A stretch of DNA of 64,000 nt. Origin: a virus. Lineage: Duplodnaviria; Heunggongvirae; Uroviricota; Caudoviricetes. Positions 7,131-55,822 of this stretch are shown one piece after another. The stretch spans positions 49,317 to 113,316 of the IMG/VR virus record IMGVR_UViG_3300038968_000013; one strand, given 5' to 3'. Position 1 is the stretch's first letter; every line of letters starts with the position of its first letter. Both the position numbers and the translations under genes were made by a program. The notes below the pieces were generated by a model. It was not told where the DNA came from. It did no database searches and saw only the letters and a list, made by a program, of their open reading frames with translations.

Positions 7131-7813
7131 TTCTCGAAGAACACCTTCGCGTTCTTTGGGTCCAGCACGTTCATGTCACGCGTGCCGCCGAAATTGTGCG
7201 TGACCTTCGCGTCGTACACCATGAGTGGATATTGACCGAACGCCTCAACTTGGCGCAGACAGTAATCCACATCTTCAAACGAGTAGAAGTACTCGGTGCT
7301 CAGTCCCCCGAGCGAGTCCCACGCATCCTTACGGACCAGAACACAGGCAAACGTCACCCACGGGCAGTATAGCGACTTGACCACATTCTCCGGGTCGATT
7401 CCCGCTTGAATGTGTACCGGCATCATATCACTGTGCCGGAAGCCGCAGCCCGCATGAATGAGCTGATTTTTCGTCGTAACGATCTTACAGCCCAAGAGAG
7501 GTAGCGCGCGCTGTTTCCATAGCGCATCAATACAGTCAGGGTCTACGATGACATCATTGTTGACGAGGAGAAGGTGTGACCCTATCGCCCCCCGTGCCCC
7601 GATGTTGTTCCCTTCCGAGAACGACGTATTGTACCCCGGCGTAATGATGGTCCATCCGTATTCACAGGCAATGTCGACCGTTTCTTGGTCGGTGCCATTT
7701 TGAATCAGGATCTTCTCCACAACCGGGAAACGATCCGGGATGGATGCCGCGAGACGTGCAAAGTAATCTGGCCGATCCTTCGACAGGCAGACTACGGTAA
7801 TACCTTCAACCAC
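7079..7813 (-). CDS. glycosyltransferase, GT-A fold (GT2-like)
   Basis: N-terminal VVCLSKDRPDYF is a typical GT2 start. LVNNDVIV provides a DxD-type motif. Confidence 0.7.
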   Translation of the reverse strand: MVEGITVVCLSKDRPDYFARLAASIPDRFPVVEKILIQNGTDQETVDIACEYGWTIITPGYNTSFSEGNNIGARGAIGSHLLLVNNDVIVDPDCIDALWKQRALPLLGCKIVTTKNQLIHAGCGFRHSDMMPVHIQAGIDPENVVKSLYCPWVTFACVLVRKDAWDSLGGLSTEYFYSFEDVDYCLRQVEAFGQYPLMVYDAKVTHNFGGTRDMNVLDPKNAKVFFEKWVRTKRLQDALGMLFQ

Positions 7814-8395: not shown

Positions 8396-9081
8396 TACTT
8401 CAAGTTCCCTAGGTCTAGGAGGTCGACTAGACGGGTCGCAATCGCGGGGCCGACATCAGGAACGATCCGGTCCCGAGCCTCCTGCAGGTAGCGGCGCCCA
8501 ACGCCCTTTCCTCCACCAATCTTCACATGGGTTGCCGCAGCAAAGAGCGGAATGACCTTATCCCGCTGTTGCCCACGACCCCGGTCTTCCCCACGGGTGC
8601 GGCGTCGCTTCCCGCGACCCTTAAGGGCCTTGACGCCGTAAAGCACGTCATTCCACCAGAAGGTCCGATCGAATAGCTCGCGAGCCTGGAGTGCGGTGAA
8701 CTTCGGTACCCCAGCTGCCGTCATAGCAGCCTTAAGGGGAATCGTCATGACCTTCGCCTTACGGGGCTCCGCGTCAGCTCCAAACTCCTGCGCACCACCG
8801 TAGATCGGAATCTTGCCATTCTCAGGCTTGAGGATTCCGAGCTTCGCCGTGATCGTGTCGTTATCCTTTTCGACCTTACCCATGATCGAGGCACGCAGCT
8901 TACCGGTGCGTGGGGTAAGGATCTTCCGCGTTAGGTTGTCCTTCGCGTACACTTCCGCCAGCTTCATCGACGCGCGCAGCGTATCTTCGGTCGCCTTGAC
9001 GATCTTCGTATCGATCGTCTTCAGGCGACGAACCAGCGCCTTGAGCGGCTTCAGGTCGACGGCGACCTTCACACTCGCCAT
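8395..9081 (-). CDS. head-tail joining (neck) protein, putative
   Basis: 228-aa ORF downstream of the gp6-like adaptor. It carries an Arg/Lys-rich insert. Called by synteny only. Confidence 0.3.
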   Translation of the reverse strand: MASVKVAVDLKPLKALVRRLKTIDTKIVKATEDTLRASMKLAEVYAKDNLTRKILTPRTGKLRASIMGKVEKDNDTITAKLGILKPENGKIPIYGGAQEFGADAEPRKAKVMTIPLKAAMTAAGVPKFTALQARELFDRTFWWNDVLYGVKALKGRGKRRRTRGEDRGRGQQRDKVIPLFAAATHVKIGGGKGVGRRYLQEARDRIVPDVGPAIATRLVDLLDLGNLK

Positions 9082-9659
9082 TACAGTCGAACCACCGCGT
9101 AGGCAGACAGAATCGAGTTCACTGCCGGAAGAAACTCCAGCGACGTGTAGGACGCAGAACTATTCCCAGTGCCCTGTGACTGCAGCCCCGACTTACTGGC
9201 TAGCTCGATCTCATGCCCCGCCTGTAGGATGCACGCGAACTTGATGTCGTCCGGAATCGGATCAAAGCCACCCACGTAGATTACCTGGACCGTGTTAAAT
9301 CCCTCAAGAAACGCGGTGTAGCGCAGCTTGAGAATTCCCGCCTCGGTGTCAACGCCGTACGACGTGGTGGACATGGCTGCAGCGGTTGAGAAATCACTCG
9401 TTGACGATTCCTTCACAGACGTCACGCTGGCAATCGGAAGTGCATGCAGCTGGAGCACTGACTGCTCTGCTGCTGGTGAGAAGTACTCCGTGTACGTATC
9501 CTTCGTGAACCGACGTCCGATCTTCTTCTCGAAGCGACTCGATACCGACTTGATCGCGAGCTGGTAGAATTCTTCGTCCGCAACATCGACCGTCGCCGCG
9601 CGAATCTTACGGAAGGATGGATGCAGCTTCAGTTCATCTAGTGTGCAAAACTCTGCCAT
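9081..9659 (-). CDS. head-tail connector (gp6-like adaptor) protein
   Basis: N-terminus CTLDELKLHPSFRKI resembles the gp6-like connector family start (..LDE.K.HLRI..). The position in the operon fits. Confidence 0.5.
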   Translation of the reverse strand: MAEFCTLDELKLHPSFRKIRAATVDVADEEFYQLAIKSVSSRFEKKIGRRFTKDTYTEYFSPAAEQSVLQLHALPIASVTSVKESSTSDFSTAAAMSTTSYGVDTEAGILKLRYTAFLEGFNTVQVIYVGGFDPIPDDIKFACILQAGHEIELASKSGLQSQGTGNSSASYTSLEFLPAVNSILSAYAVVRL

Positions 9660-10051
9660 TACGAGGTTACCTTCCGTAGGTTCTCAACGCGGAAACGAAC
9701 TTCGTGGGCGCCCTGCTTCGTTGGAGAGCCGTAGAAGAAATCGAAGCGCGCGATGTGCAGCTCTGTATTAAAACGCTCGTCGATGATTGGGTTGTCCGCT
9801 GACTGCATATTCCACGTCAGTAGCCCCGAGGTTGGATGGATCTCGACGTTGTTTGTGTTCTTGACGTCCTGCTCATTCCGCCCGTTGATGATATTCGCGG
9901 TCAGGGGTGACGGTTCGGGAACATCAGCATTGAACAGTGTCAGCGTAATCGCCGTAAGCGAGGCGAGCGGGATCACTGTCCCCGTCTCATCCTTGAGCGT
10001 GGCGGTATAAATTGCTGCGGTATCCTGTTTGACGCGGAAAGTATTGACCAT
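9659..10051 (-). CDS. hypothetical virion-module protein
   Basis: 130-aa ORF, translationally coupled to its neighbours. Confidence 0.4.
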   Translation of the reverse strand: MVNTFRVKQDTAAIYTATLKDETGTVIPLASLTAITLTLFNADVPEPSPLTANIINGRNEQDVKNTNNVEIHPTSGLLTWNMQSADNPIIDERFNTELHIARFDFFYGSPTKQGAHEVRFRVENLRKVTS

Positions 10052-10054
10052 GGG

Positions 10055-10486
10055 TTACTCTGTCAGTTGGTCGAGGGAGGTCTGAAACACCGTCTGCTTC
10101 TTTGCGGCTTCTTCGTCGGAGAGAGCAGAGCGATACAGATGCTCCGTTGAGCAGGCGGGACACAGGACGGTGTGACGCTCACCATCATATGGCGGCGCCC
10201 CAATTAGCTCTGAAATGTCCTGCCCGCAGTGTGTGCGGAGGTCCATCAGCTTTACGAGGCTGGTGTTCCACGCACCAAGCGTGTCTTCCGTGGGCAGCTC
10301 CGAAGCTCCGAGAATTTCGTTGAGCGCAATCGTCAGCTGCTTCAGCCCATGCCAATCCTGTTCGTCGATAAGGCGATGACGCTTGGCATTGATTGCACGC
10401 ATCCGATCTTCATGGAGACGGCGCGGCCCACGGCAGTAAACCTTGAGGAATCCCCTATTGAATTCCTGTTGCTGTGCATTCGTCAT
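10055..10486 (-). CDS. hypothetical virion-module protein
   Basis: 143-aa ORF in the same operon. Confidence 0.4.
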   Translation of the reverse strand: MTNAQQQEFNRGFLKVYCRGPRRLHEDRMRAINAKRHRLIDEQDWHGLKQLTIALNEILGASELPTEDTLGAWNTSLVKLMDLRTHCGQDISELIGAPPYDGERHTVLCPACSTEHLYRSALSDEEAAKKQTVFQTSLDQLTE

Positions 10487-11301
10487 TAGGTGCTGCTACC
10501 TACAATCTGTAGCGTGAACGTGCTCTTGAGCGCGCCCGTGCTATTCGAAAGCGTCTGCTTGATCCACAGACCTGAGGCTTCTCCCGCCGCGAGAACGCCC
10601 GCTGCTGCCACTTCACCAGACACCGCAGGAATCTGTGTTGCGGCATTCGTGGTGATGAAGGTGACGGAGCTTGGGCTAGACGGCGCCGTGAGACGGTTGG
10701 TTGTGGACTGCGCCGAACCGGTCGCAAATCCCCACTCGATTACGGTGTCCGGATCAGCGGTACACGCGATCGTGGCATTCGTAAGCGAGAGGGTTCCGTG
10801 ATTGTTCTTCGCGTAGATCTTTTCGTAACGATCGACAGGGGAGCCGGTGGGAGTCTGCGAGTCGTAGAACAGCACGCGCACGGCACGCTCACCCGCAGCG
10901 ATAGTCGTGAAATCCGGGGTGTCCCCATCATCCCTTATTGTAATCGTTCCCACCGCGTTGGTGAGTGCGGACCCAGATTGAAGGCGAACCTCCGCAAGTA
11001 GGATGCGCTCAAAGACCTTTGCACCTGTGGTAAAGGTGTTGGCGCTTGCTGAGATGTTGATGTCCTCAGTGTCAATAACACCGGTCGCGAGACGTCCAGT
11101 GATACGAACCTTCTTGTCGCCGTCGCTTGTTCCACTCGATGCCACCTCAACGGCGGTTCCCGTAGAACCAGGGATCTGTCCGGTCGAGAAGACTGGACGA
11201 GTCTTGGTTGTCGTTTCGATAGCGCCACCCGACGTTCCGCTGTCGGACGTCGGCATATTCGCGCTGGTGTAAAGTACTAGATCAGTAGCTGCGATACTCA
11301 T
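10486..11301 (-). CDS. Ser/Thr/Gly-rich beta-type structural protein (decoration or fibre candidate)
   Basis: 271 aa, very S/T/G-rich. The start overlaps the upstream stop codon. Confidence 0.4.
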   Translation of the reverse strand: MSIAATDLVLYTSANMPTSDSGTSGGAIETTTKTRPVFSTGQIPGSTGTAVEVASSGTSDGDKKVRITGRLATGVIDTEDINISASANTFTTGAKVFERILLAEVRLQSGSALTNAVGTITIRDDGDTPDFTTIAAGERAVRVLFYDSQTPTGSPVDRYEKIYAKNNHGTLSLTNATIACTADPDTVIEWGFATGSAQSTTNRLTAPSSPSSVTFITTNAATQIPAVSGEVAAAGVLAAGEASGLWIKQTLSNSTGALKSTFTLQIVGSST

Positions 11302-11313
11302 GTTGTTACTCCG

Positions 11314-12720
11314 TTAGTTCAAGACATCCTCGTCCGTAATGTCTGCGACAGTGACAGATTCGTCTGTGAAAGTTGCCATCTTTAGTTCTTCGGTAGCAGT
11401 AGCTAGCGTCAAAGCTTCCCCACTGATGGTGAGAACCTGTAGTGACTCTAGAACCATCTCCGCTGCACGGACCATCTCGTTTGTGAACTTGATGAACCGA
11501 ATCAGCGAGGGAAGGCCGATAGCCTCAAAAGGGATACCCTTAGAGCTAGCAACCTTTTGTAGGTTCTCGTAGGCTAGCTCGAAGGCTTTGATATTCTTCG
11601 TCAGGTTTTCAAAAGCCACCTGACTATCAGACCGTAGCGTTACTAGAGCTTCGATCTGAACGGCGCGAGACGCCGAGATAAGGCCCCCGCGTGCTTCGTA
11701 CGGAACCTCTGACGTCGATTGCACACCCGTCACGTTTTCAACGGGTACAATAAGGGAGGATGTACGGCTCCCGAGATTTTCTAGCGCGACATCGATCCCG
11801 TGCTGGATCTTAGAGACCGCCTCTAGGGCTGCCTGGCGAGACGCCTGGAGTCCTACCAGCGCCTCATACGCTCCGACCACACTTACCGCCGAAGTCTTAA
11901 GTGCCTCAAATTCTACCACAAATTGCACCGAAAGCATAGAAGATGTTGCTTCAAATGCTACCGGAACGCCCCGTGCTAGCCCGCTAAGGTTTTCCCAATG
12001 CGCCTGGACCGTAGCCTGGAGGGCTATGATGTTCTCGATCGTGGCGTCATGGGTAGAAACGACCTTCGCCAGCGCCTCGTAGGACGTGGCAAGATCCTTG
12101 GCAATTTGCTTCTTTGCCTCAAAGCTTACTGCCGAGCTGTTCATGGTGCCTGCGACCGCCTCCAGAAGAGGGGTCTGGGTGACCAGAATCCCGACAAGCG
12201 CCTCGAAGCTAATGTCCTGTGCCCGCGCCAGGGTGACCAGCGACTCAAAGCTTACCGTGCTTGGCTGGACCGCCCGGAGCAGGGCTTCAAATTGGTTCAC
12301 CCGGCTGGCCGCGAGCCCAACCACGTCCTCGTACGACGGGGTTAGACTCGTAGCCAGTGAGACCAGGGCTTCAAGAACGGCAGGTTGATTTGCCGCAACC
12401 GTATTCGTAGCTTCGTAGGAAACCTGCAGCGCCTTCGCCAGGCCGACGATATCCTCGTGTGAAACATCACTAGAGAGCGAGACTTTAACCAGGGCTTCGT
12501 AAACAGCCTGGAGCCCAAACGCGAGCGAGGTCAGGTTCTCAATACCTACCGTACTGCTGGCTACTTGCCCAACCAGTACCTCATACGCGATCGGAGAGAC
12601 GGTCGAGATCCCGACGATGTTCTCGTAGGCGACGCTGCGGGTCTGTTCTAGCTTGACGATGTTTTCGAAGACAGTCTGAACTTCGGTACCAACGTCGTTG
12701 TCATCAATCAGTAGTAGCAT
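11314..12720 (-). CDS. tandem 14-residue-repeat protein (x-S/A-Y/F-E-A/N-L/I core), function unknown
   Basis: About 30 consecutive repeats are visible in the translation (VAYENI, IAYEVL, AVYEAL, VSYEAT, PSYEDV, NQFEAL, VSFESL, ISFEAL...). Confidence 0.6.
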   Translation of the reverse strand: MLLLIDDNDVGTEVQTVFENIVKLEQTRSVAYENIVGISTVSPIAYEVLVGQVASSTVGIENLTSLAFGLQAVYEALVKVSLSSDVSHEDIVGLAKALQVSYEATNTVAANQPAVLEALVSLATSLTPSYEDVVGLAASRVNQFEALLRAVQPSTVSFESLVTLARAQDISFEALVGILVTQTPLLEAVAGTMNSSAVSFEAKKQIAKDLATSYEALAKVVSTHDATIENIIALQATVQAHWENLSGLARGVPVAFEATSSMLSVQFVVEFEALKTSAVSVVGAYEALVGLQASRQAALEAVSKIQHGIDVALENLGSRTSSLIVPVENVTGVQSTSEVPYEARGGLISASRAVQIEALVTLRSDSQVAFENLTKNIKAFELAYENLQKVASSKGIPFEAIGLPSLIRFIKFTNEMVRAAEMVLESLQVLTISGEALTLATATEELKMATFTDESVTVADITDEDVLN

Positions 12721-15700
12721 TAGTCAAAGTCACAAAAGTAGTAACCACACTGCTTATCCTGCGAGCATGGGAGTCCAATCTTACTATCTGCACCAGCTGA
12801 GCAAGCATAACAATCGGCTGCCGTAGAGCAGGCACGTCCCTTTAGAAAGCCACTCTGGCAGGTAGTGCTACAGGTCGGCGCAGTGTTGCAGACACCATCT
12901 GTCTTCTTCCCCAGGTTCCCAGCGAAATCCACATTTGCAGCACAGGCGCTAAGGAGATCACAGTAGGCGCTTGACCCCTCCTGAGTATAATGGACCTTAT
13001 CAGCCAAGTATGGGTGCGAGGCGTCCTTCGTAAGGATTGAAGCGCCACCCTTGTCAATGAAGTACTGGAACGAATCGACAAAATTTCCACCTGTCGCGAT
13101 TTGCTCGGCTACTAGCCAAGATCGCCAGGAAATGACATCTTGAGTTCCTTCAAACCACCCAGTCTGCTTCCCGTTTTCTACGCCCGAATTAGTCGGAGCT
13201 GAGGTCACCCAAACGTTCTCAACCACCTTACAGACTCCGCTATCGCATTGTCCACCGGAGCTACATGTTTGGCCATTCTGTGTCCCACCGCGACAGCGCA
13301 TCGTTGCCTTATCGTCAATTGATCGCTTGCCCCGAATCATACGCGCAAGGGTATTAGACGTTGCACAGATACCGCTACAGCCAACTGCTCCCGTGGCTGG
13401 GGTACACCCGCTGTAGGAGTCCGCATGAGTAGCCGCTGACGCGGTTGCGACTACGCTGGACCGTGCTGTTACGCAGACGTTAGAGCTACATGTCGTTGTA
13501 GTGATAGTGCCACAGGTACCACTTGGGCAGTCTGCTGGCTTTGTGCAGGAGAGCCCATTGTTTGCGCCGCCGGAGCACGTCGAGGGAAATGGGCCCGCAC
13601 CACCGAGGTGGCACTCTGAGCTTGAAGAGCAGGAGCAGGGCCCAGAGATGTTTGCTAACCCGAATGAGGTTGAGTTCTTAGCCATAGCGCAGAACGCCAC
13701 AAACGGGTAATCCTCTGAGTCCCAATTTGACGTCTCGGGACAGGAGCACTCTTTTCCCTGGTCGGTGCCGTACCCGCCAGCAGCTGTCCACGACTCACAG
13801 AACCCATTCTTTAAGATTCCCCCGTAGGACGAATTATTATAGGGAGCCGCCGTCGCAACCGGGTGAACCGTGTTGTTAGCGATCTGAATGAACGCTACAT
13901 CAATGGCTAGTCCACCTGTTCCAGTAATTGGAATGGTTGTGATCTTGTTTCCGGTTCCACTTTGCCCAGCCGCAAGCGTGTAGAAATCGCGATCGATGTC
14001 TCCCATGGAAGCACCGCCACGGGCCTGATCGTAGATAGCCGAAGCCTCAATCATGCTCGCCGCGCATGCAACCTTAACAGTAGATTGATCGGTTCGCGAA
14101 TCACCCATTAGGCCAACTCGCTTGTCACCCGGCAGCACATCGGAGGGGATCGGCGTGGGGCTTTGACTTACAACCTCTAGGTCCGCAAAAGTAATACGCG
14201 CCTGGTCCCCATTTTTGTGAAAAACGGTCTTATGAACCTCACCGATATAGTCATCAATCCCAGCATAGCTAATAGTGCTATTGTCGGGGTTTGTATTGAT
14301 GAGAAAAGGCACCGGGAAGTACAGCGTATCGCCAGTTCCGTCGTCTGGAACAAAGTTGTTCAGATCAAAGGATGTGCCAGTCTTAACGTTCGGCGTTCCG
14401 GCGATATCGCGGAGGCTGAGTTGCACGCCAGCCCCTAGGGTGTCGCTCCCCTCTGTGTCTTGCGCCGCAACATTAAAGACCGCAGCAAGCGGCGTAAAGC
14501 TACGGCTCGTTGGCTCCTGGAATTCAACCTCGCGGAGCCAGTCGGCATCATCGACACTAGTGTTTTCTGAAATACGAGTGGTGTTTCCATCCGGCTCGTT
14601 CGCAACGGTTCCGTTTCCGGTTAGACACTTATACTCATTGCCAGCCCCAGAGCACCCAGTCCCGACCCATCCTAGGTCCGCTCCGTTAGCGTCTACCCAC
14701 AGGGATTCAGAGACCCAGTTTGTTGATGGCGAGCTGCCTGTTTGCACAATCAGATTGTCACCAAAAACGCGCGAACGCTCTCCACTGTCATCCGGCCCAA
14801 AGAGCACACGATCCGGGGAAACAAGGCTGGTGTATGGACTTGTGAGGCCAGTTGTCGTACAGGATGCGTTAACGCATGACCCAGCAAGAGAGCAGTTGTT
14901 GCTATTGCAGTCCCCGTTTACAGTACAAGTCGCACCAGCGTTTGTGCCGCCAACGCAAGCCTTCATGAGGTTGTAAGTAGGCCACGTTGTGTTACACTCA
15001 CAGTCGGTATTCGTCGCGCAGGCTAGGTTCAGCGTTCCTCCGTTTGCCAGGCGGGAACGAATAGAGTCTCCCCCTGTGCATTTCCCCACCCGTTGAGTTC
15101 CAAGTCCGCGCTGATAAACGACGGGTAGATTGCTTGTGCATACGCCTCCGGTCCCGCAGTCTGCGTTGACGTTGCATACTGACCCGCTAGGGGCCGTTCC
15201 GGCAGTGCAGAGCTTGCCAAACTCGCCGCTATAGAACTTACAGGTTACTTCACCGGTTCCGTTTACCTGCTCAACTGCCATTACGTTTTGGCTGTTTTGC
15301 GCACGGGAAATTAGACCAAAGTAAGAGGGGGAGCACTTCGCCTCATTTGGGCGAAGCTCATCGCATTCGTTAATGCAGTGACAATCGCTTCCGTCGCAAC
15401 TAAGGGTTTCGTTTTCATCGCGAACGCACGCCGTTGGGTTGCTTCCCATTGAAAGGTAATCGGGACGGCCAGGTAGGCAATCCGCGACTGTAGTACAGGA
15501 TTGCCCGCATACGGTATCCACCATTTCAACCGACTGCTGGCATCGACCAACGACCTCCTGCGCATTCCCGTAAAGTACGGCAAAGTGCTCAAGGGGCTGA
15601 GAGCAAGCACCAGAGATAGTATTTAGACCCTGGTCTGTGCATGTCTGCCAATGATAAAGCGAACACCCCTTTTCGGTGCTTGTGGCAAGGGAGATAAGGG

Positions 15701-16157
15701 GACGACGCTGTGGCTTGCAGTACCCGCTTCCGCAGTTTGCTGCCGAGTTGCATGGGGAACCATTACGGGTCGGACCAACGCAAATGGGCATAGCCCCCAG
15801 CATAGGGAGCGTGTACATTCCGGCTAGGAGTTGCGTGTAAGTCGACCCGAGAAGCACGGTGCCGTTAGAATTGACTCCATCCGCGCTGCTACTGTCAAAG
15901 TCAATCAACATGCGGTTATTCACAGCCGACGTAAACAATGTTGTGTTGAGACTTGGCCAGTACGGATTAGTACTAGCAGAAATCGCGACGCTGTTAGAGC
16001 GATATCGCGGCGCTGTCCCTCCGACCCCACCTGTAAAGACCGAGGTCTTAACCGGCGTGTCGTTTGTTGCAACGTCCGATCCGGCAAAGAACTGAGTTGT
16101 TGCAGCTTGCGCAGGCGAAGCAAACAGTAAGAAGAAGTAGAGAATGATCCAATACAT
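12720..16157 (-). CDS. 1145-aa secreted Cys-rich protein
   Basis: Classic Sec signal peptide MYWIILYFFLLFASPAQA|AT. Many CxxGxC / CxSGxC-type Cys pairs (CGSGYC, CGTGGVC, CNSNNC, CDSGVC, CPSGTC). The start overlaps the upstream stop codon. Confidence 0.65.
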   Translation of the reverse strand: MYWIILYFFLLFASPAQAATTQFFAGSDVATNDTPVKTSVFTGGVGGTAPRYRSNSVAISASTNPYWPSLNTTLFTSAVNNRMLIDFDSSSADGVNSNGTVLLGSTYTQLLAGMYTLPMLGAMPICVGPTRNGSPCNSAANCGSGYCKPQRRPLISLATSTEKGCSLYHWQTCTDQGLNTISGACSQPLEHFAVLYGNAQEVVGRCQQSVEMVDTVCGQSCTTVADCLPGRPDYLSMGSNPTACVRDENETLSCDGSDCHCINECDELRPNEAKCSPSYFGLISRAQNSQNVMAVEQVNGTGEVTCKFYSGEFGKLCTAGTAPSGSVCNVNADCGTGGVCTSNLPVVYQRGLGTQRVGKCTGGDSIRSRLANGGTLNLACATNTDCECNTTWPTYNLMKACVGGTNAGATCTVNGDCNSNNCSLAGSCVNASCTTTGLTSPYTSLVSPDRVLFGPDDSGERSRVFGDNLIVQTGSSPSTNWVSESLWVDANGADLGWVGTGCSGAGNEYKCLTGNGTVANEPDGNTTRISENTSVDDADWLREVEFQEPTSRSFTPLAAVFNVAAQDTEGSDTLGAGVQLSLRDIAGTPNVKTGTSFDLNNFVPDDGTGDTLYFPVPFLINTNPDNSTISYAGIDDYIGEVHKTVFHKNGDQARITFADLEVVSQSPTPIPSDVLPGDKRVGLMGDSRTDQSTVKVACAASMIEASAIYDQARGGASMGDIDRDFYTLAAGQSGTGNKITTIPITGTGGLAIDVAFIQIANNTVHPVATAAPYNNSSYGGILKNGFCESWTAAGGYGTDQGKECSCPETSNWDSEDYPFVAFCAMAKNSTSFGLANISGPCSCSSSSECHLGGAGPFPSTCSGGANNGLSCTKPADCPSGTCGTITTTTCSSNVCVTARSSVVATASAATHADSYSGCTPATGAVGCSGICATSNTLARMIRGKRSIDDKATMRCRGGTQNGQTCSSGGQCDSGVCKVVENVWVTSAPTNSGVENGKQTGWFEGTQDVISWRSWLVAEQIATGGNFVDSFQYFIDKGGASILTKDASHPYLADKVHYTQEGSSAYCDLLSACAANVDFAGNLGKKTDGVCNTAPTCSTTCQSGFLKGRACSTAADCYACSAGADSKIGLPCSQDKQCGYYFCDFD

Positions 16158-17479
16158 TACATCACCGGAATAAAGTAAGTTGCGTTAGCTGACCCAGCAT
16201 TCGACCACGCGCACTGCACCCAAACGTCCGCAATATCCATCGCAGCTCCACTTGCAGAGGCGCTTTTATACCCACCAACCTCTAGGCCGTTAAGGTAATT
16301 AAGCCGCGTTGAAACCCCTGATCCGAACCCAGTGATGATGATGTTAAAGGTACTGTAGGTCTCGGCAGAGAGCGTAACTTGGGTATCGACAGGCGTCGGA
16401 GTCGCAGCTGGCGCCGTTGGACTTGGTGCAGGAATCGCAATATAGCGAAGCTGGTAAGTTCGATTCGTACCAGTAGTGCGTCCCGCCCTGGCTTGATAGC
16501 GGCACCCGTGAATAAAATCGACACCAGCTGCCGAAGCTGGAATTGCCGGGGTTGGCGTACCTGAGTCCCACGCCGCGAGACCCATGGTCTGTCCTGTGGT
16601 GTCGTCGCCTGCGTTTGACTGCGCATAGTTGTTGTCTGAGGTAGTCCCATCGTGATTCGCTGCCCAGACGTAGGACGCTGGCGAAGATTCCCATACCGCC
16701 CAAATGTTCGACGATCCGGTTCCGTTGTTAACCTTAGTAGAGGCTGGCCAGTTGTTGTACGTCCCGTTCGAGTCACCTTTTCGAATATTTACGTAGGTGT
16801 TCGGCGTCGGCATATCTCCGGTTCCGATGTAGAGGTCGTCAAACTTTTGATACTGGAAGTGATTACCAGAAACCGTTAGCGCAGCCGAGAGGGTAAGGGC
16901 ATCGATGTTCGTAATAGTACGACCAGTGTGAGTAGACCCAAGCTGGGACCACGTACCACCGGACTCTTGGTACCATTTTGTAGAGCCTGATCCGCTTCCC
17001 GTTACCACCTCAATTAAGAAGGGCACCCAGGTATTCGTTGGAAGGGCGTAAGTGTTTCCTGACTGCGCCCCATTTGTTTCTAGCGTTAGCGTGTAATCGG
17101 TTGTGCCGTTGGGGCAACTAAACTTTAGCTTGATGTCTCCCCAATCGGCAATCGCGCCGGTTGGGGTATTCGTGCAAGTTGTAAACGGGGTAACTTGAAT
17201 GCGGAAAAACAGGTAAACCGTTCCCGTAGCCCCAAGCCCTGTAACAACAGAACAAGTCCCGGATGTCCCAGACGACTTCTCCATGAGCACAAAGTAGTCA
17301 CCTGAAGCGGCCGACCCGCTATTGATCTTGGTCTGGGATAGTCCGGTATTACAGGCAAGGCCCTTTTCCCCCTGCTCAAAGCCTTCAGCCCAGAGCATCC
17401 CTGCTTGTACGTTCCCGCACAGAGTTAAAACAAAAAGAACTGCGGCAATTAGTCCGCGTCGACAGTGTAGGAAAAGCAA
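16157..17479 (-). CDS. 440-aa secreted protein
   Basis: Signal peptide ...AAVLFVLTLCGNVQA|GM. The body is Thr/Gly/Ser-rich. Confidence 0.55.
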   Translation of the reverse strand: MLFLHCRRGLIAAVLFVLTLCGNVQAGMLWAEGFEQGEKGLACNTGLSQTKINSGSAASGDYFVLMEKSSGTSGTCSVVTGLGATGTVYLFFRIQVTPFTTCTNTPTGAIADWGDIKLKFSCPNGTTDYTLTLETNGAQSGNTYALPTNTWVPFLIEVVTGSGSGSTKWYQESGGTWSQLGSTHTGRTITNIDALTLSAALTVSGNHFQYQKFDDLYIGTGDMPTPNTYVNIRKGDSNGTYNNWPASTKVNNGTGSSNIWAVWESSPASYVWAANHDGTTSDNNYAQSNAGDDTTGQTMGLAAWDSGTPTPAIPASAAGVDFIHGCRYQARAGRTTGTNRTYQLRYIAIPAPSPTAPAATPTPVDTQVTLSAETYSTFNIIITGFGSGVSTRLNYLNGLEVGGYKSASASGAAMDIADVWVQCAWSNAGSANATYFIPVM

Positions 17480-18942
17480 ATGTTGATCCGTTTCGCGTTA
17501 GAACCTGACACGTAGTCCAGGTCGATTTCATCACCAACGGCCACCTTACCCTCCGCTGCTTGGATAGTGGTCGTACACGCCCCACCTGTTGAGGTAGAGC
17601 AAGCAAGATCGCTTGTCGCAATATCGGCGGGAGAGCCGTCATCGCGTTGAATGTTGATTGTAGCTGCCGCTGAAGCCTCGCTACTAATCTCGCAACACAG
17701 CTGCGTGATTGTAATCGCACGAGCCTTATTCATCCAGATGGATGGAATATCGAGAGTGGCTGGATTAAGGGCCGAGGTTTCGTTGAAGATTGTAAAACAC
17801 GCCTGCTGCGTCTTCATGGCCACAGAGGCATAAGTGCTGTCGATGTCAACGCATGTCGGAGCTGCGTTGTCCGTAAGTGTTTGGGCAACTGTTCCAGCGC
17901 CACAGGCCCCCGCACCCGCCGCCGCTACGGATGAGGTTGCGAAGGTGGTCCCCGTCCCGCGTAAATAGCGACCGGAGGTTGCAGTGTTGTTGGCACCAGT
18001 GCCACCGTACGATTCGTCTAGTGGGGTGGAAATCTTGAGGCCCGTGAGGATACTTACCTCTTGGCCATCAAACTCAAGGTCGTTAAGCGTAGAGTCGTAT
18101 TCAATCGACATCTGTTGAGTTGTACCGAAGTACTTCTTAACGTCGTTCAGCATCCAAGTAGCGGGCATATTTCCGGTAGCAATTGGATCTGTAACCCGCA
18201 GTAGATTGGCCCCAGCGGAAACAGTCAGAACCCCTCCGGTTGCCGAACCAGAGAAATCCCCCGTGGTGAATTCGATTTTTTCTACCCGGTCGCCTGGAGA
18301 TACAACACCAATAGAGGCCCGGATGCTTGGAATTCGCCAACCGTAAGTAGAGCTTCCAAGGTACGAGCAGTAAAAGAAGCTCTGCCCATCCGTAGTAAGA
18401 TCATTGTCGATGCAGACGCGCCCAACCTCATCCGCAGCATCACAGTTGGCGGAAGAACAGGAGGTTGCATTTGGGAGTTCGACTTGCGCTGCGCCAAAGT
18501 CCTGCACCGTTGCCCCGTAGGTGTTAGCCTCATCCTCATAGCAAATCGCCGAGGGGAGCTTAGATCGTGTTGTGATGCCACTCGCATCAATGTCTGCATC
18601 CGCAACGGTCCCATTTGCAATCTCTGCGGTTCCAACAGCACCCGTTGCGATCTCTGTCGCGGTTACACCATCGGCCTTGATGCTGATAGCACCACTCGAC
18701 GCTGAGAAGTTGTTTGTGTTGAATGACGCGGCGCCCTTCTGAGAGGTCGAGGCATCGGGGATCGAGATGCTACACTGCCCTCCGCTAACACTTCCGGTCA
18801 GCGGAGGCGTGATGCTCGTTTCGAAGCAGGTATCGTACGCTCCACCGTAACTAATCGATGGAGGCGGATAACTGATCTGCGCCCACCCTGGCGTTGCGAG
18901 TAGGAGAACGAAAAGAATGACCAGGAGGTAACGCTTTACCAT
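17449..18942 (-). CDS. 497-aa secreted protein with fibre-like GTAEIANGTVADADI repeats
   Basis: Signal peptide MVKRYLLVILFVLLLATPGWA|Q. Contains the phage-fibre-like repeat IKADGVTATEIATGAVGTAEIANGTVADADI. Confidence 0.55.
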   Translation of the reverse strand: MVKRYLLVILFVLLLATPGWAQISYPPPSISYGGAYDTCFETSITPPLTGSVSGGQCSISIPDASTSQKGAASFNTNNFSASSGAISIKADGVTATEIATGAVGTAEIANGTVADADIDASGITTRSKLPSAICYEDEANTYGATVQDFGAAQVELPNATSCSSANCDAADEVGRVCIDNDLTTDGQSFFYCSYLGSSTYGWRIPSIRASIGVVSPGDRVEKIEFTTGDFSGSATGGVLTVSAGANLLRVTDPIATGNMPATWMLNDVKKYFGTTQQMSIEYDSTLNDLEFDGQEVSILTGLKISTPLDESYGGTGANNTATSGRYLRGTGTTFATSSVAAAGAGACGAGTVAQTLTDNAAPTCVDIDSTYASVAMKTQQACFTIFNETSALNPATLDIPSIWMNKARAITITQLCCEISSEASAAATINIQRDDGSPADIATSDLACSTSTGGACTTTIQAAEGKVAVGDEIDLDYVSGSNAKRINICFSYTVDAD

Positions 18943-19358
18943 TTTTGCACCCGGAGGGTCTTGTTGTTGGTTGTAGCTACACAGTAAACGTTCCCAGTAA
19001 AAATACCTGGACCATTCTGCTGATAGGAACCATTGTTTGGAATAGGAATCCCGTTGGTTGAGGCAACCGAGGAGTGGAATCCCATGTAGATTGTCGCGCC
19101 GGAATTGTTGTAGATGAGCCAGCCCACCTTCGAACCAGCCGCGACTACGATCTCAGGCGTATTGGCGGTATCAAGGGTTAGCTCGACGGGAGCTGTTTGT
19201 GTGGCGCCCGCCGTAACATTGCCGCCGTCTGGATCATCGAGAGAAACGCGCTGCACATAGCGAGTAACGGGCCCAGGGTCCGACACCTGATATGTCGCAA
19301 CGTTGTGGGTCGTCCCGGCTGTTGCGGTCCCCTTAACTACACTCGCCTTTGTTGCCAT
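18936..19358 (-). CDS. hypothetical small beta-rich protein (decoration candidate)
   Basis: 140 aa, Thr/Gly/Asn-rich, sited between the GT4 gene and the secreted-protein genes. Confidence 0.45.
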   Translation of the reverse strand: MATKASVVKGTATAGTTHNVATYQVSDPGPVTRYVQRVSLDDPDGGNVTAGATQTAPVELTLDTANTPEIVVAAGSKVGWLIYNNSGATIYMGFHSSVASTNGIPIPNNGSYQQNGPGIFTGNVYCVATTNNKTLRVQKW

Positions 19359-19361
19359 ACG

Positions 19362-20351
19362 TTACAGATCCTTAATGATATCAATGATACCTTGCGCGGA
19401 TCGTTCCCACGTAAACGCTTGAAGGTCTTGGTGAGCACGCTTTCCGACGATGAGCGAGTTGTCGTAATCGTGCATCACCGCTGCCATCTGCCTTGCGAGG
19501 CCCGGAAGATCCACGATCGCAAACTCGTACTTGCCTGTTGGGTTCGTAACTGCGGGGCCACCCATTGACGCTTCGATCCGCTCTAGCTTGTGCGGAGCAA
19601 AGAAGCAGTTACGGCGATTCGCAAACTCCAGCATCCCAGAGTACTCAGTGGTAATCGTGGGAAGCCCAGAGGACATCGCCTCGGCAACGGTCAAACCCCA
19701 GCCTTCGCCCATGGTCGGCATCACGAAACAGTGCGCCGAATGATACAGCTCGATCATTTCCTCGCGTGTAACATTTCGCCCATCCGTGATGGTGTTGCCA
19801 CGCTTGAAAACGTTCTGAAGATCTGGGTTGTGCGAGGTAGTTTTGATGTACAGTTCAACGAAGGGAATCTCTTTGAAGAAGTGATCCCAGACCACTCCTA
19901 GATTCCACCACCCCTTACGAGCATTAAAGGCGCCCACCCACAAGAAACGAAACTTCTCGTTCTGATCTTGTGAAATCGAGCGCCTTACGTAGGGGACATG
20001 ATCTGTCCCGAGAGGCACCACCTCCACGCGCTTCCCCGTCCACTTACGAAAGTATCGCTGGCAGAACTTGGAAGGCACGATGATAAGGTCGGCCTTGCGC
20101 ACCCGATCAAGCACATCTTGCGTGCAATCGGGTGTTTCGTACATCGTGATCAGAACATTAAACTTGCCTTGAAAGTGCTCAAACGCGTGCGGAGCACAGT
20201 AGGAAATATGAATGGGGCTGCGCCCGGAGATCTGAACCCCAAGCTTTTGAAACGCGGACTTCGTTCGAAAGATCGCGTTGTGATACCCGTAGTAGTTCCC
20301 GCCAGGAAGGTACTCGCCTTCCTTCGTGAACCACGAAACACTGACTGCCAC
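19362..20351 (-). CDS. glycosyltransferase, GT-B fold (GT4-like), paralog of 6048..7130
   Basis: EGWGLTVAEAMSSGLPTITT motif. Overall collinear with the 6048..7130 protein. Confidence 0.8.
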   Translation of the reverse strand: MAVSVSWFTKEGEYLPGGNYYGYHNAIFRTKSAFQKLGVQISGRSPIHISYCAPHAFEHFQGKFNVLITMYETPDCTQDVLDRVRKADLIIVPSKFCQRYFRKWTGKRVEVVPLGTDHVPYVRRSISQDQNEKFRFLWVGAFNARKGWWNLGVVWDHFFKEIPFVELYIKTTSHNPDLQNVFKRGNTITDGRNVTREEMIELYHSAHCFVMPTMGEGWGLTVAEAMSSGLPTITTEYSGMLEFANRRNCFFAPHKLERIEASMGGPAVTNPTGKYEFAIVDLPGLARQMAAVMHDYDNSLIVGKRAHQDLQAFTWERSAQGIIDIIKDL

Positions 20352-20382
20352 TCACTGAAGCCTGATCGTACCCAGATTAGGT

Positions 20383-20622
20383 TTAGCGACGGTTTTGACG
20401 CGTCATCATGCGGTGGTTCGGAGGAAAATCATCAGCCGCTGTCCCTGCCTTTGGAGGCGGTGGCGGTGCTGGCTCTTCACTCTCGAAAACTTCGAGCCGA
20501 ACGACTAGCTGTCGAATCCGCAGCTCTTCAGCTAGTGGGACCACGAAAATCGATCCCTTGGGATGCCAGACGCCATCGGCTGTCGCGACCGGCAGGATTG
20601 CTTGAACTTTGCTTAGTTTCAT
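20383..20622 (-). CDS. hypothetical small Pro-rich protein
   Basis: Track ORF 20383..20646, with the likely start at the internal MKLSKV. Confidence 0.3.
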   Translation of the reverse strand: MKLSKVQAILPVATADGVWHPKGSIFVVPLAEELRIRQLVVRLEVFESEEPAPPPPPKAGTAADDFPPNHRMMTRQNRR

Positions 20623-20694
20623 AACACAACAACGGGGGAAGAGCAAGAAATTCCCACTCTTCCCCCGCTTCCTGTTTTGATTCCCTACGACGGA

Positions 20695-22020
20695 TTAGCT
20701 GTAGGTCTTAGCGACCGACCACGAACCCGTGTTAGATCCATCAGCCTGATTTACGCAGACGAAAGCGAAACGCTCCATCACACGCATCACAAGCTCGCCA
20801 GTGGTGAAACCGGCGTGAGGCGAAATGTCGATCGACATACGCTTGCGATCACCGAAGATCGCGTGCTTGAAGTCACCGTAGATCAGGAACTTCGAGCCCG
20901 AAGTGTCATCCGCAGCCTTCGGCATCACTGTCGAAGTGTAAACCGGACGACCAAGCAGACGGCGAGGCGAGGCTTCCGTTACAGAAGACACGTTGTCCGC
21001 AAGGTTGAACGGACGACCGTTGTTGTCGACCATAGCGGTCTGGATCTGGTTCCACACGTAGTTGGACATGACCCATACGCCATTCTCCTGAAGCTTCTCA
21101 TCGACCTTATTGTAGATTGCAATCAGGTCGTTCCACTTGATGTTCTTGAACGAGGTAGAACCGGAAGGAAGGGTATGGATACCCGCCGTACCAGTCTCGA
21201 CCATTACACCAGTGAACGGAGTGTGGTCGGCACGAAGCACCTGGAAGTCTTCCGCAAGGGCCACAGCCTCTGCGAATACGTCGACCAGGAAGGACATCAG
21301 ATCCGGAGTCGAATCCTCGTCCACTTCGAGCGAGATGTTGTCCAGAGCCATGAGGCGAGTTGCCACCATCTCTGGACGGGTGAACGCCTGAGTCGACTGA
21401 CCTACGCCACTCGCTTCAGTTGTCACCGCCTTGTTTGCGCCAGACGACGTGATGTTCTGGCCTACAAGAGTCGTAGGGCCATAGGTCGCGACCGGTAGAC
21501 GCATGACCTCACGGGTCATCGGCATGATGCGGCAGAGCTTGCGAGCAAGACCAAAGTTGCTCACAAGGCGGATGATTTCGTTGGCCTGCTCCGGTGGAAC
21601 AAGCACACCACCGCCCGCGTCAGGAGTACCGCCAGTGTAGACGTTACCTTCCTTCTGCGTACGTGCGTTCTTCCAGAAATCATACTTCTCATCGAGGCCG
21701 CGAGCCTTGCGAGCAAGGTCCACAACCATCATTCCTACACCCTCACGGGCGCGCGCACGGGCATCTTCCCCATTAGCAGCGGTGTAGTGCTTTTCACCGC
21801 GAGGAAGCTGCTTGTCCATCTCGTCCATGCGCTTGTTGACGTTCTCTAGAAGCCCACGGGTCTGCTCAAGGGCCGCACGAACTTCGGCGGTTTCCTTATC
21901 AATCGCAGCTCCCTTGGACTCAAACTCACGGAGGGCGGTTTCTACCTTCTCCGTCTGCTCAAGAACCGCATCCTTCAGCTTGTAAAGGGGGTTCTCGTCC
22001 TTAACATGAATGTCAGCCAT
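20695..22020 (-). CDS. major capsid protein, HK97 fold, with N-terminal coiled-coil (delta/scaffold-like) domain
   Basis: 441 aa. The N-terminal 100 aa are coiled-coil. The position after the protease and the composition are typical of HK97-family MCPs. Confidence 0.75.
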   Translation of the reverse strand: MADIHVKDENPLYKLKDAVLEQTEKVETALREFESKGAAIDKETAEVRAALEQTRGLLENVNKRMDEMDKQLPRGEKHYTAANGEDARARAREGVGMMVVDLARKARGLDEKYDFWKNARTQKEGNVYTGGTPDAGGGVLVPPEQANEIIRLVSNFGLARKLCRIMPMTREVMRLPVATYGPTTLVGQNITSSGANKAVTTEASGVGQSTQAFTRPEMVATRLMALDNISLEVDEDSTPDLMSFLVDVFAEAVALAEDFQVLRADHTPFTGVMVETGTAGIHTLPSGSTSFKNIKWNDLIAIYNKVDEKLQENGVWVMSNYVWNQIQTAMVDNNGRPFNLADNVSSVTEASPRRLLGRPVYTSTVMPKAADDTSGSKFLIYGDFKHAIFGDRKRMSIDISPHAGFTTGELVMRVMERFAFVCVNQADGSNTGSWSVAKTYS

Positions 22021-22107
22021 TGCTGTATTTCCTAGTTGTTGTCTATGGCTGGTAGTTAACCAGCGAGTAAGAGTTTCTTGGTTCTTTGCCTACAAAAGAA
22101 CTGGGAG

Positions 22108-23322
22108 CTACCCGTTCTTTGAGCGAGCCTTAGTCTTCGTGACCAGCTCGCCGAGAATGTCCGCTGCGAGACTGCGCTGACGGATCTCTTCCTTGCGCGC
22201 ATTCATCGCTGAGCGAATGTCTTCGATATCTTCAAACTTAAACTCAGGCTCCTTAGGAGTCTCTGATTCACGCTTCCCCTCAGGCTCTGCGGCTGACTTG
22301 CCGGTGTCGGCGTCGCCATCAGCTTCCTGTGGCCCTGCGTTACGAAGCACTGCGGCGATCAGCTGCATTGCGTCCGTTAGCGCCTTGCGGTTTGCGGAGT
22401 TGAGCACCGCACCCTTGCGATTCTCCCCAACGGGGATCTCGTCAATGCGCTTCTCTAGTGACTCAAAACGAGCACCAAATTCCTTCATCAGCTTCTCTAG
22501 ATCCATGACTGTCTCGTCCTTGGTTCCCTCGGCTGCCAGATCAACGCCGACCTCAACAGGGGCCCGCTGTTCGTTCTCTGGGTCCGCATCGACCGTTTCG
22601 TCATCGTCACTCTCTACGATGCGCCACTCACCCGCCTTGAATTCATCAGGCAGGGTCTCGCGTACCTCGTAGATTCCACGCTCATTCTTGGTGGCCACAA
22701 ACCGCTCTGGGTTTAGTCCACGTTCACGAATGTTCGTGATCAGCGCATCAGGGTCCGCTGGGACCGGAACAACGCTGGTCTCCATCGCGTCAGTGCGAAT
22801 GAAGTTCCATCCCGTGTAGTAGCCGTCGCCATCGCGAATCGGCTCAGCTTCAAGGGTGCGCCACCCAAACGACACTGTGCGTAGATCGCCATTCACCAGC
22901 ATCTCAAAAATACTATCGGCGAAACGCTTGTGCTCCGTGTCAGTCGTAGTCTTGAGCGGGGTGAAGCGGATCTTCAGCACCTTCCCAAGCCCCTCAACGT
23001 TCGTCTTGCGGAAATCCACAATGCGACCGATCGGTGGCTGGTCATAACGGTGCGCCCACATCAGGACCGGGTTGGCCTTCAGATTACGAAGGTCAATGCC
23101 CTTGACCTGGATAGTGCTGCCGTCGCGCTTGATTCCTTCGCTAACGGCAATCGCCTCCACGACGGGGCCTGAGCTGGTCTCGTCAACCTTGCGTGCGCCG
23201 AACGCACTGTAGTTGGTCGCTACCGGCTGCTTATTGTCAGCAAGCGCCTCGGCAAAGCGAAGCGTCGCCATCTTGTCCCCATCAGGGGTATCCTTACGAA
23301 ACTTTAGATCCGTGATCTTCAT
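22108..23322 (-). CDS. prohead protease (HK97/S78-like) with C-terminal scaffold-like coiled coil
   Basis: Likely start MKITDLKF with an AGGAG RBS 6 nt upstream. Motifs PVLMWAHRYDQPPIGRIVDF and LRTVSFGW match the protease family. The C-terminus is acidic coiled-coil. Confidence 0.6.
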   Translation of the reverse strand: MKITDLKFRKDTPDGDKMATLRFAEALADNKQPVATNYSAFGARKVDETSSGPVVEAIAVSEGIKRDGSTIQVKGIDLRNLKANPVLMWAHRYDQPPIGRIVDFRKTNVEGLGKVLKIRFTPLKTTTDTEHKRFADSIFEMLVNGDLRTVSFGWRTLEAEPIRDGDGYYTGWNFIRTDAMETSVVPVPADPDALITNIRERGLNPERFVATKNERGIYEVRETLPDEFKAGEWRIVESDDDETVDADPENEQRAPVEVGVDLAAEGTKDETVMDLEKLMKEFGARFESLEKRIDEIPVGENRKGAVLNSANRKALTDAMQLIAAVLRNAGPQEADGDADTGKSAAEPEGKRESETPKEPEFKFEDIEDIRSAMNARKEEIRQRSLAADILGELVTKTKARSKNG

Positions 23323-23626
23323 TGATGCTCCTGTGATACTGTTCCTCGCGCGTGGCGATCGTATGGCAATTCGCGCAAAGCAAAGTGAGTTCCCCAAGGA
23401 GGAACCGTTGTAAAATGCGTTGCGCTTGTTGCAGATTTACTGCCGTCGCGCGGAAACCACGTCGCCGATCTTCAGCTCCGTCGTGGTATCGATGGTGAAA
23501 CTCTAACGCCCGCCAGTCTGAAAACCGGCATTGGGAGCATCTTCCACCGACTTGCTCAATGATCCACTGTCGGTATTCAAACCGACGTTCATGAGCCTGG
23601 GACTTCTCTTCCGCGCTATTAAACAC
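23294..23626 (-). CDS. HNH endonuclease
   Basis: EFHHRY...LLCANCH motif pair. Confidence 0.65.
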   Translation of the reverse strand: MFNSAEEKSQAHERRFEYRQWIIEQVGGRCSQCRFSDWRALEFHHRYHDGAEDRRRGFRATAVNLQQAQRILQRFLLGELTLLCANCHTIATREEQYHRSINEDHGSKVS

Positions 23627-28742: not shown

Positions 28743-28995
28743 GCTTTACCTCTCCACACGTTGGGAAGGGAACTTCCCCACGATCCATCCGGGCCAATCC
28801 GGAAAGATCCATGACCTCCACCGGCACTCCGTAGTTGTGGTACTTCCGATACGACAGTCGATACTCGATCATGAACGCCGGTTCGTGCCCGCGTTCGTGA
28901 CAGTAGTGACACATCCCAATCGTCATCGGGCCCAACCGCGACGCATACGTATTCACTGCGCCGTTCGGTGCTCCACAGCAGTCGCATTTACCCAA
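28726..28995 (-). CDS. hypothetical Cys/His-rich small protein
   Basis: 89 aa with a CDCC..CHYCHERGH pattern. Confidence 0.3.
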   Translation of the reverse strand: MGKCDCCGAPNGAVNTYASRLGPMTIGMCHYCHERGHEPAFMIEYRLSYRKYHNYGVPVEVMDLSGLARMDRGEVPFPTCGEVKRGKGH

Positions 28996-40872: not shown

Positions 40873-40877
40873 GTGAG

Positions 40878-55796: not shown

Positions 55797-55822
55797 ACCA
55801 TCCTCCCCTTATTGTACTCGGT

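Follow-up and report, generated by a model that had tools for sequence, protein, structure and literature searches.

The stretch analyzed here, referred to as the window, comprises 64,000 nucleotides (nt), positions 49,317 to 113,316 of the IMG/VR record IMGVR_UViG_3300038968_000013, and covers the larger part of an uncultivated tailed-phage (Caudoviricetes) genome. Identical DNA is also found on an ENA metagenome scaffold of 65,072 bp. Three consecutive genes on the minus strand of its late operon encode proteins with predicted signal peptides: a fiber-like protein of 497 amino acids (aa; 17449-18942), a lectin-like protein of 440 aa with a TTG start (16157-17479) and a Cys-rich giant of 1145 aa (12720-16157). 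These open reading frames (ORFs) were confirmed as the original prediction had described them, and so were the stop/start overlaps tying them into the gene run between capsid and connector genes. A 140-aa gene (18936-19358, minus strand), lying directly upstream, overlaps the 497-aa gene by 7 nt; the 497- and 440-aa genes overlap by 31 nt; and a TAATG joins the 440-aa gene to the giant as well as the giant to the gene of a 468-aa repeat protein (11314-12720, minus strand). Both ends of the block are, in this way, stop/start-coupled to late genes whose products have no signal peptide. Translational coupling means that synthesis of these proteins would be linked and roughly coordinated, which would suit proteins that work together. 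The block is unusual because proteins from phage structural operons normally stay in the cytoplasm; to our knowledge, the late operons of tailed phages are assumed to encode cytoplasmic proteins, with the exception of lysis genes.

Signal peptides were predicted from Kyte-Doolittle hydropathy and the -3/-1 rule. They span residues 1-21 of the 497-aa protein (MVKRYLLVILFVLLLATPGWA, followed by QI; nt 18880-18942), residues 1-26 of the 440-aa protein (MLFLHCRRGLIAAVLFVLTLCGNVQA, followed by GM; nt 17402-17479) and residues 1-18 of the giant (MYWIILYFFLLFASPAQA, followed by AT; nt 16104-16157), with cleavage sites reading GWA before Q, VQA before G and AQA before A, respectively. The hydrophobic cores start at residues 4-9 and have 10-residue means of 2.9-3.9; positive charges precede them in the 497-aa (K3, R4) and 440-aa (R7, R8) proteins. 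When 72 non-overlapping ORFs of the window were compared, no late-operon gene other than these three had a strong core at the extreme N-terminus; one further flagged ORF with a core near its start (37304-37648, plus strand), possibly spurious, is not part of the operon. A lipoprotein reading was rejected, since no lipobox precedes the Cys in the LTLCG of the 440-aa protein, and so was Tat export, since no twin-arginine consensus with the usual following motif is present.

Signal peptides are conserved in the families of the giant and of the 440-aa protein despite identities of only 33-41%. All 10 members of the 1145-aa family (≈35% identity) carry an AxA signal peptide followed by Ala, with A16 invariant and A18 nearly so, and the 9 members of the 440-aa family likewise all have a signal peptide that obeys the -3/-1 rule. 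For the fiber-like protein, clear signal peptides are present in 9 of the 12 homologues fetched, one of which is truncated at the N-terminus and another of which lacks it.

Cysteine content gives a second and different kind of evidence. Cys makes up 5.8% of the giant (66 residues), and there are 15 in the 497-aa protein and 8 in the 440-aa one. For most of the remaining late proteins the share is 0-3%, the exception being a 150-aa tail chaperone-like ORF (5.3%); no Cys at all occurs in the tape measure, in the 468-aa repeat protein or in several of the connector proteins, and capsid and protease contain only 1-2 each. After removal of the signal peptide the Cys number is even in 19/19 proteins of the 440- and 1145-aa families (range 6-78; 50-78 in the 1145-aa family), a figure that is not a clean probability, given the relatedness within families and the fact that gain or loss of a four-Cys module leaves parity unchanged. 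In two cases, P0006 (61 Cys) and P0035 (11 Cys), the total is odd, and an even number results only when a single Cys within the predicted signal peptide is removed. Further signal-peptide proteins from related loci are even in 16 of 17 cases, five of which depend on the same removal and are of different protein types (the 249-aa protein of L001, the 652-aa protein of L002, the 715- and 299-aa proteins of L007 and the 1212-aa protein of L008; loci described below). For comparison, late proteins of the window without a signal peptide are even in 11 of 18. Even parity, in two family members reached only after signal-peptide removal, points to cleavage and complete disulfide pairing, and therefore to export. 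Together with the conservation of signal peptides at ≈35% identity, this makes the oxidizing compartment put forward in the original prediction well supported as the destination of these families, and export of the window proteins is predicted on the same grounds.

The same prediction had described dozens of CxxGxC-type pairs in the giant. Its Cys richness stands, but the frequency of the motif was overestimated: the 66 Cys could form 33 pairs, and only five canonical four-Cys modules and about three relatives are found. All on the minus strand, the modules lie at residues 126-147 (15717-15782; CVGPTRNGSPCNSAANCGSGYC), 317-340 (15138-15209; CTAGTAPSGSVCNVNADCGTGGVC), 401-422 (14892-14957; CVGGTNAGATCTVNGDCNSNNC, a canonical 22-aa C-x9-C-x5-C-x4-C unit), 861-882 (13512-13577; CSGGANNGLSCTKPADCPSGTC, within an insert that splits the SGNH domain described below) and 955-976 (13230-13295; CRGGTQNGQTCSSGGQCDSGVC, in the second SGNH insert). 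The consensus of the 22-residue unit is CxGGxNAGAxCxxxSxCPSGxC. A regular-expression search returned 43 occurrences in 1145-aa, 440-aa, fiber and Laminin_G_3 proteins, which count as 40 distinct ones, P0001 sharing the sequence of the window protein. Modules sit at non-homologous loop positions, in one to six copies, and are present or absent between close relatives, so the unit behaves like a small, insertable and apparently mobile stabilizing knot. No family for it was found in Pfam or NCBIfam, where only the EB module and Dickkopf matched weakly, and an 85-aa query of concatenated modules had a single match, to an irrelevant protein. Zinc binding was judged unlikely: the spacing contains no CxxC pairs, and the strict Cys parity fits disulfides better.

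The giant falls into three parts, all given here as minus-strand coordinates. Its N-terminal beta-rich half (residues ≈19-665; 14163-16103) matches ConA-like jelly rolls in structure searches, and these domains are putatively carbohydrate-binding or lyase-like. An SGNH/GDSL esterase domain follows (residues ≈672-1078; 12924-14144), split by Cys-rich inserts, and a Cys-rich tail closes the protein (residues 1086-1145; 12723-12902, ending in CGYYFCDFD), where Cys 1090, 1096, 1100, 1110, 1116, 1119, 1131, 1137 and 1142 are invariant or nearly so. The catalytic blocks of the SGNH domain are found in canonical order. In block I, LMG-D686-S687, the Ser (codon 14097-14099) is invariant in 10/10 members and the Asp nearly so; G714-G715 of block II and N762 of block III are invariant; in block V, D1053-K-V-H1056, the His (codon 12990-12992) is invariant and the Asp nearly so.

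Sequence methods recover this domain weakly. A trimmed profile of the 1145-aa family matches the acylhydrolase 4ppy_A (E = 0.0026), with block V aligned to its DGVH, and a Pfam scan of all family members at E <= 10 gave one weak Lipase_GDSL_2 match (E = 0.083). A cropped model of the SGNH part, built from the window fragment aligned to full-length homologues, reaches a predicted local distance difference test (pLDDT) score of 75-91 over the first half of the domain, with patchier quality over the second half. The modelled domain has the three-layer alpha/beta/alpha flavodoxin-like fold, and its structural matches are led by generic GDSL hydrolases, followed by acetyl-xylan, carbohydrate and sialic-acid esterases, Ape1 and PatB/OatA. 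In BFVD it matches phage lipases, esterases and SGNH tail fibers and spikes, among them the tail fiber of Klebsiella phage Sin4 and the tail spike of Pectobacterium phage PP99, at weak E values (1e-3 to 0.1). The structure prediction proposed as a check of the original prediction thus yielded both SGNH and jelly-roll matches, although confidence was low (pLDDT 48, 61). The giant is, in our reading, an SGNH esterase with lectin-like domains; the fold and the catalytic residues are in place, and esterase activity is predicted from them.

The profile of the 440-aa family matches the Cip1 jelly roll 3zyp_A (E = 0.008), and the mature part has six invariant Cys. Only 8 cluster representatives related to the 440-aa protein were found among 1.8 billion, all with signal peptides. 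An hhalign comparison of the 440- and 1145-aa families aligned only the signal peptide and the first mature residues and detected no deeper homology. The 497-aa protein contains fiber-type repeats (GVTATEIATGAVGTAEIANGTV), a conserved motif (GGTGANNTATSGRYLRG..F.TSSVAAAGAG.C) and a conserved C-terminal domain of ≈110 aa (TINIQRDDGSPA...); motif and domain are common to ≈20 metagenome proteins, and homologues occupy tail-fiber positions in other phage contigs. Pfam, PHROGs and NCBIfam returned no match for any of the three window proteins and no known anchor domain. Scans of IMG/VR with the alignments of the 440- and 1145-aa families found no homologue, and a tblastn search of 50,697 cultured-phage records with the three proteins was equally negative, which leaves no cultured phage whose virion proteomics could be consulted instead.

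The genes of the 440-aa protein and of the giant form a conserved pair and, with a fiber-like gene, a mobile cassette. It was found again at four loci, which stand for three independent relatives, and in one case it belongs to a tail/lysis module. L001, an 80-kb JGI contig, is syntenic with the window: capsid, a GT4 glycosyltransferase, a 146-aa protein, signal-peptide proteins of 482, 249 and 1193 aa and a repeat protein. L002, a prophage-like element of ≈70% GC with an integrase, has the cassette after the tape measure and tail proteins, in the order 139 aa, 652 aa (signal peptide, collagen), 432 aa (signal peptide) and 1096 aa (signal peptide); the protein in the position of the 497-aa one contains a collagen triple helix (PF01391, E = 2.5e-21). 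The end of the L002 cassette overlaps the start of a Hydrolase_2 (SleB-type) endolysin gene, after which come three more signal-peptide genes, two directly and one further downstream. A genome-collection search found a single contig with the same four-gene set, in a Candidatus Binatia metagenome-assembled genome. The 140-aa protein, which has no signal peptide, accompanies the cassette at the corresponding position in every relative, with an identity of 31% to its L001 counterpart and 18-21% to those of L002 and L006. The 468-aa protein, on the other hand, is treated as the product of a context gene rather than as an established member of the cassette; a 709-aa counterpart follows the giant in L001 and none does in L002. 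It consists of ≈30 copies of a 14-residue repeat (..[YF]E[AN][LI]V.L..; lag-14 identity 0.21), has neither Cys nor a signal peptide, and could be a virion beta-solenoid or fiber. As the cassette shifts between genome positions, a fixed place in the assembly line is argued against.

Comparable runs are found in three phage contigs unrelated to the window phage, which were reached through homologues of the fiber-like protein. In the podovirus-like L007 (844-9993), the structural module ends with three signal-peptide proteins, among them a beta-helix protein, whose mature forms contain 10, 12 and 6 Cys; neighboring virion-module proteins without signal peptides have zero Cys, except a 178-aa ORF with 11. 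L009 has two signal-peptide proteins in an analogous run. L008 (6928-15995) presents seven consecutive signal-peptide or lipoprotein genes between terminase and portal, including a 1212-aa protein with 95 Cys, 94 after signal-peptide removal, for which no homology to the giant could be demonstrated.

The idea that the three genes are moron cargo is not supported in the strict sense of the word. The cassette has no promoter or terminator of its own, its GC content (0.53-0.55 across 12-20 kb) equals that of the flanks, and both of its ends are coupled to late genes. A simple consensus scan of the minus strand over 9000-23500 found no sigma-70-like promoter, with the proviso that this consensus may not be the promoter type of the host. 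No convincing terminator lies around the block, and the few 5-6-bp stems within genes are at chance level; the sole strong hairpin is upstream, a terminator-like element with an 18-bp stem directly after the capsid gene (20631-20669, minus strand), which would probably attenuate transcription of all downstream genes, cassette included. One moron trait is present, namely variable placement: the window and L001 have the cassette between head and connector genes, L002 has it after tail genes.

The remainder of the late operon is likewise encoded on the minus strand. Upstream of the cassette are a terminase (25969-27441, assigned by position alone, with no family match), a portal with a Mu F domain (23660-25957), a prohead protease (22108-23397), an HK97-type capsid protein (20695-22020; PF05065, E = 4e-41) and a GT4 glycosyltransferase (19362-20351). 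Downstream of the 468-aa gene there are ORFs of 271, 143 and 130 aa, a head-tail adaptor (9081-9659; phrog_442, E = 4e-23), a Neck1/tail-completion protein and a 159-aa ORF. GT2 and GT4 glycosyltransferases (6048-7813) directly precede a 341-aa putative tail-tube protein, which has a weak match to phrog_290 ("minor tail protein") and is followed by two chaperone-like ORFs, one of them the 150-aa ORF mentioned above, and by a 2133-aa tape measure that runs past the left end of the window. After the tape measure comes a conventional tail tip, with a 274-aa protein and a 1465-aa Laminin_G_3 protein, both without signal peptides and with few Cys. Since this tail tip is separate and made of proteins without signal peptides, the three cassette proteins are extra to the standard adsorption apparatus. 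The late-gene starts examined in 9000-23500 have no clear Shine-Dalgarno motifs and many are TAATG or ATGA-type overlaps, which suggests that host or phage relies on coupling or on leaderless-like initiation.

Elsewhere in the window, several genes are of interest in their own right. A 538-aa orthologue of Ro60 is encoded at 61161-62777 (minus strand; TROVE E = 2e-42, Ro60 vWA E = 8.5e-49), and a tRNA-Leu is located nearby (59328-59411); Rfam, run over the whole window, detected no Y RNA or other family at gathering score apart from three tRNAs. A Thg1-like tRNA-His guanylyltransferase (43223-43954, minus strand; PF04446, E = 3.5e-28) is present, as are tRNA-Asp and tRNA-Gly at 40798-40951. 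In a non-structural region (54711-57544, minus strand), an SPFH/Band-7 membrane protein (E = 2e-18) adjoins a 573-aa AAA ATPase.

We hypothesize that the cassette encodes a late, co-translated and exported module that binds and de-acylates the envelope polysaccharide of the infected cell, serving receptor destruction or masking, superinfection exclusion or release, and we assign to this reading a probability of about 0.5. The three genes, probably with the 140-aa gene, would act as a mobile late-gene cassette whose products leave the cytoplasm through Sec, have their signal peptides cleaved and their Cys fully disulfide-bonded. The 497-aa protein would be fibrous and probably trimeric, the 440-aa protein a lectin-like jelly roll, and the giant a combination of lectin- or lyase-like jelly rolls with an SGNH carbohydrate esterase, bearing the 22-residue four-Cys knots; the proteins may form a complex. 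They would bind an acylated envelope glycan (O-antigen, capsule, exopolysaccharide or a nascent periplasmic polymer) and strip acyl groups from it, so that late in infection the receptor of the phage itself would be destroyed or masked. The possible gain is that superinfecting phages are excluded, fewer progeny are lost on debris and release becomes easier. A precedent for glycan processing is offered by the phage SGNH domains in BFVD, which are part of tail fibers and spikes acting on surface glycans.

The window is unusually rich in glycan enzymes. Besides the glycosyltransferases of the late operon, the region 28988-33386 (minus strand) encodes two GT9 heptosyltransferase-like genes, a methyltransferase and a hexapeptide acyltransferase. 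An acyltransferase and an exported esterase in one phage make a suggestive pairing. Glycosyltransferase genes beside capsid and tail-tube genes also recall the virion glycosylation of mycobacteriophages. As for the host, the only hints are the Binatia relatives and the two GT9 genes.

Several observations weigh against the envelope module. The n-region of the giant has neither Lys nor Arg, while those of its 9 homologues carry 1-5 such residues, although three of these are on over-long called N-termini that contain acidic residues too. The signal peptide of the 440-aa protein requires the TTG start, and the start of this gene (17399-17479) differs between two public calls on identical DNA (L010 and L011): the alternative call uses an ATG 27 codons downstream of the TTG (codon 28) and loses the signal peptide. 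This doubt is countered by the other family members, 8 of 8 of which begin with a signal peptide, and by a relative of 86% identity in which the frame stays open and hydrophobic substitutions are conservative; the case illustrates that automated annotation may silently remove a signal peptide. The 497-aa protein has an odd number of Cys. The jelly-roll assignments are soft because of the low model pLDDT. An outer-membrane sorting signal was not found in the proteins, and in a diderm host a Sec signal alone reaches only the periplasm, which favors periplasmic targets or release at lysis. Finally, the content of fiber, lectin and SGNH domains is exactly that of virion receptor-binding proteins, and the slot right after the capsid gene often encodes head fibers or decoration proteins.

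These last points are the core of an alternative in which the proteins are virion appendages: a need for disulfides would account for their export, folding would take place in the periplasm, and the proteins would attach to heads or tails assembled in the cytoplasm once the inner membrane is breached at lysis. Collagen and fiber repeats and the SGNH domain are known receptor-binding content, the jelly rolls resemble the Douge baseplate protein, the CBM2 of J-1 Dit and the Pan3 tailspike, and the cassette is coupled to late genes without signal peptides in the very slot where head fibers are often found. Moreover, signal-peptide proteins fill the usual tail-fiber or tailspike slot in L007 and L009, and the conserved 140-aa partner ahead of the fiber could be an adaptor. 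We nevertheless consider appendages unlikely, as the cassette changes between head and tail modules, a conventional tail tip is already present, cleavage leaves no recognizable virion-attachment domain, and mixing at lysis would be brief and dilute; we know of no tailed phage that adds exported proteins to its virions. If true, such two-compartment assembly would explain the signal peptides and even Cys numbers of fiber- and tailspike-like genes in several uncultivated lineages. The L002 arrangement, on the other hand, where the gene of the giant overlaps the start of a wall hydrolase gene and signal-peptide proteins flank it, suggests a lysis helper, i.e., a periplasmic Ape1-like peptidoglycan O-acetyl esterase that primes the wall for the endolysin while its partners bind the wall. 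Signal-peptide genes of L007 and L009 also abut, after the structural module, small membrane-protein genes that resemble lysis genes; the periplasm is exactly where a Sec signal delivers, and exported phage lysins are a precedent (PMC6116005). This scenario is likewise a doubtful one: no endolysin is encoded near the cassette in the window or in L001, a 1145-aa lectin-domain protein with a fiber partner far exceeds what de-O-acetylation needs, and structure comparison points first to generic GDSL hydrolases and carbohydrate esterases rather than to Ape1 specifically.

Expression from a prophage is a further possibility, by which the proteins would remodel the surface of the lysogen as adhesin, coat or agents of serotype change. 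It draws on the prophage-like nature and integrase of L002, on the relative in the Candidatus Binatia contig, on the fact that exported collagen-like proteins are typical surface proteins and on the well-known exported morons Bor, Lom, Llp and Cor. Lysogenic conversion nevertheless appears improbable: around the block, the coding strand shows no promoter-like sequence and no convincing terminator was recognized, the genes are tightly coupled to late ones, and the window ORFs scanned include no integrase. That the proteins are not exported at all, their hydrophobic N-termini being trimerization or anchor helices or mis-called starts of ordinary cytoplasmic virion fibers, would accommodate the uncharged n-region of the giant and the gene call that drops the signal peptide of the 440-aa protein. 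We regard it as very improbable, given the AxA-type c-region conserved across families, the seven proteins whose Cys parity is restored by signal-peptide removal, the extracellular type of the Cys knots (weak EB-module and Dickkopf matches) and the near absence of Cys from tape measure, 468-aa protein, several connectors, capsid and protease.

Relative to known systems, one of the closest likenesses to the proposed envelope module is found in SGNH tail fibers and spikes, in which an SGNH esterase is likewise fused to fiber or carbohydrate-binding domains in a phage late gene and the presumed substrate is an acylated host surface glycan; gp63.1 of E. coli phage G7C is reportedly an example of such a virion-associated protein. 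These fibers and spikes have no signal peptide, carry an N-terminal particle-binding domain, are encoded among tail-module genes, are not Cys-rich and are proven virion parts, whereas the giant has a predicted cleavable signal peptide, 66 Cys predicted to be paired and a variable genomic position. Ape1 (PDB 8gld) is a periplasmic SGNH peptidoglycan O-acetylesterase with a host housekeeping role, of ≈390 aa and without Cys knots; no specific sequence similarity to it was detected. Exported accessory proteins encoded in or near structural genes are represented by Bor and Lom of lambda, Llp of T5 and Cor of phi80/N15, some of which block the receptor of the phage itself. Each such moron consists of one small gene, usually equipped with a promoter and a terminator of its own (Bor, Lom), and in temperate examples it is expressed in the lysogen; the cassette differs in its size of ≈6.2 kb, its three or four genes, its lack of such signals and its coupling to late genes.

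Late phage proteins exported by host Sec before lysis have been described in Lys44 of Oenococcus phage fOg44 and in signal-arrest-release (SAR) endolysins (PMC6116005). Those are single peptidoglycan hydrolases of the lysis cassette, unlike the three coupled genes for fiber, lectin and esterase found here, which have no peptidoglycan-hydrolase domain. WceF of Pantoea stewartii is a tailspike-like glycan-modifying enzyme with an export signal that acts on the exopolysaccharide of its own cell, but it is a bacterial, chromosomally encoded, Tat-exported enzyme that is not Cys-rich and belongs to the beta-helix depolymerases instead of the SGNH esterases (PMC7949094). We found no description of signal-peptide fiber/esterase cassettes in structural operons in the literature searched, which was incomplete and is thus no proof of novelty. 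The kind to which the cassette would belong, phage-encoded exported accessory proteins, is already known; virion assembly in two compartments would be categorically new, and we see only a small chance of it.

Taken together, these results describe a conserved multi-gene block whose products are apparently exported and disulfide-bonded and match receptor-binding proteins in domain content, and similar blocks exist in several unrelated uncultivated phages. The 22-residue four-Cys knot, inserted in loops of unrelated proteins, merits structural study. Whether the proteins act on the envelope or on the particle, annotation pipelines that name such genes "tail fiber" from their position would mislead. 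If the proteins reach virions, assembly would span two cellular compartments. If they act on the envelope, the cassette would be a new source of disulfide-stabilized glycan esterases and lectins and would constitute a phage counterpart of viral receptor-destroying enzymes, deployed from inside the cell.

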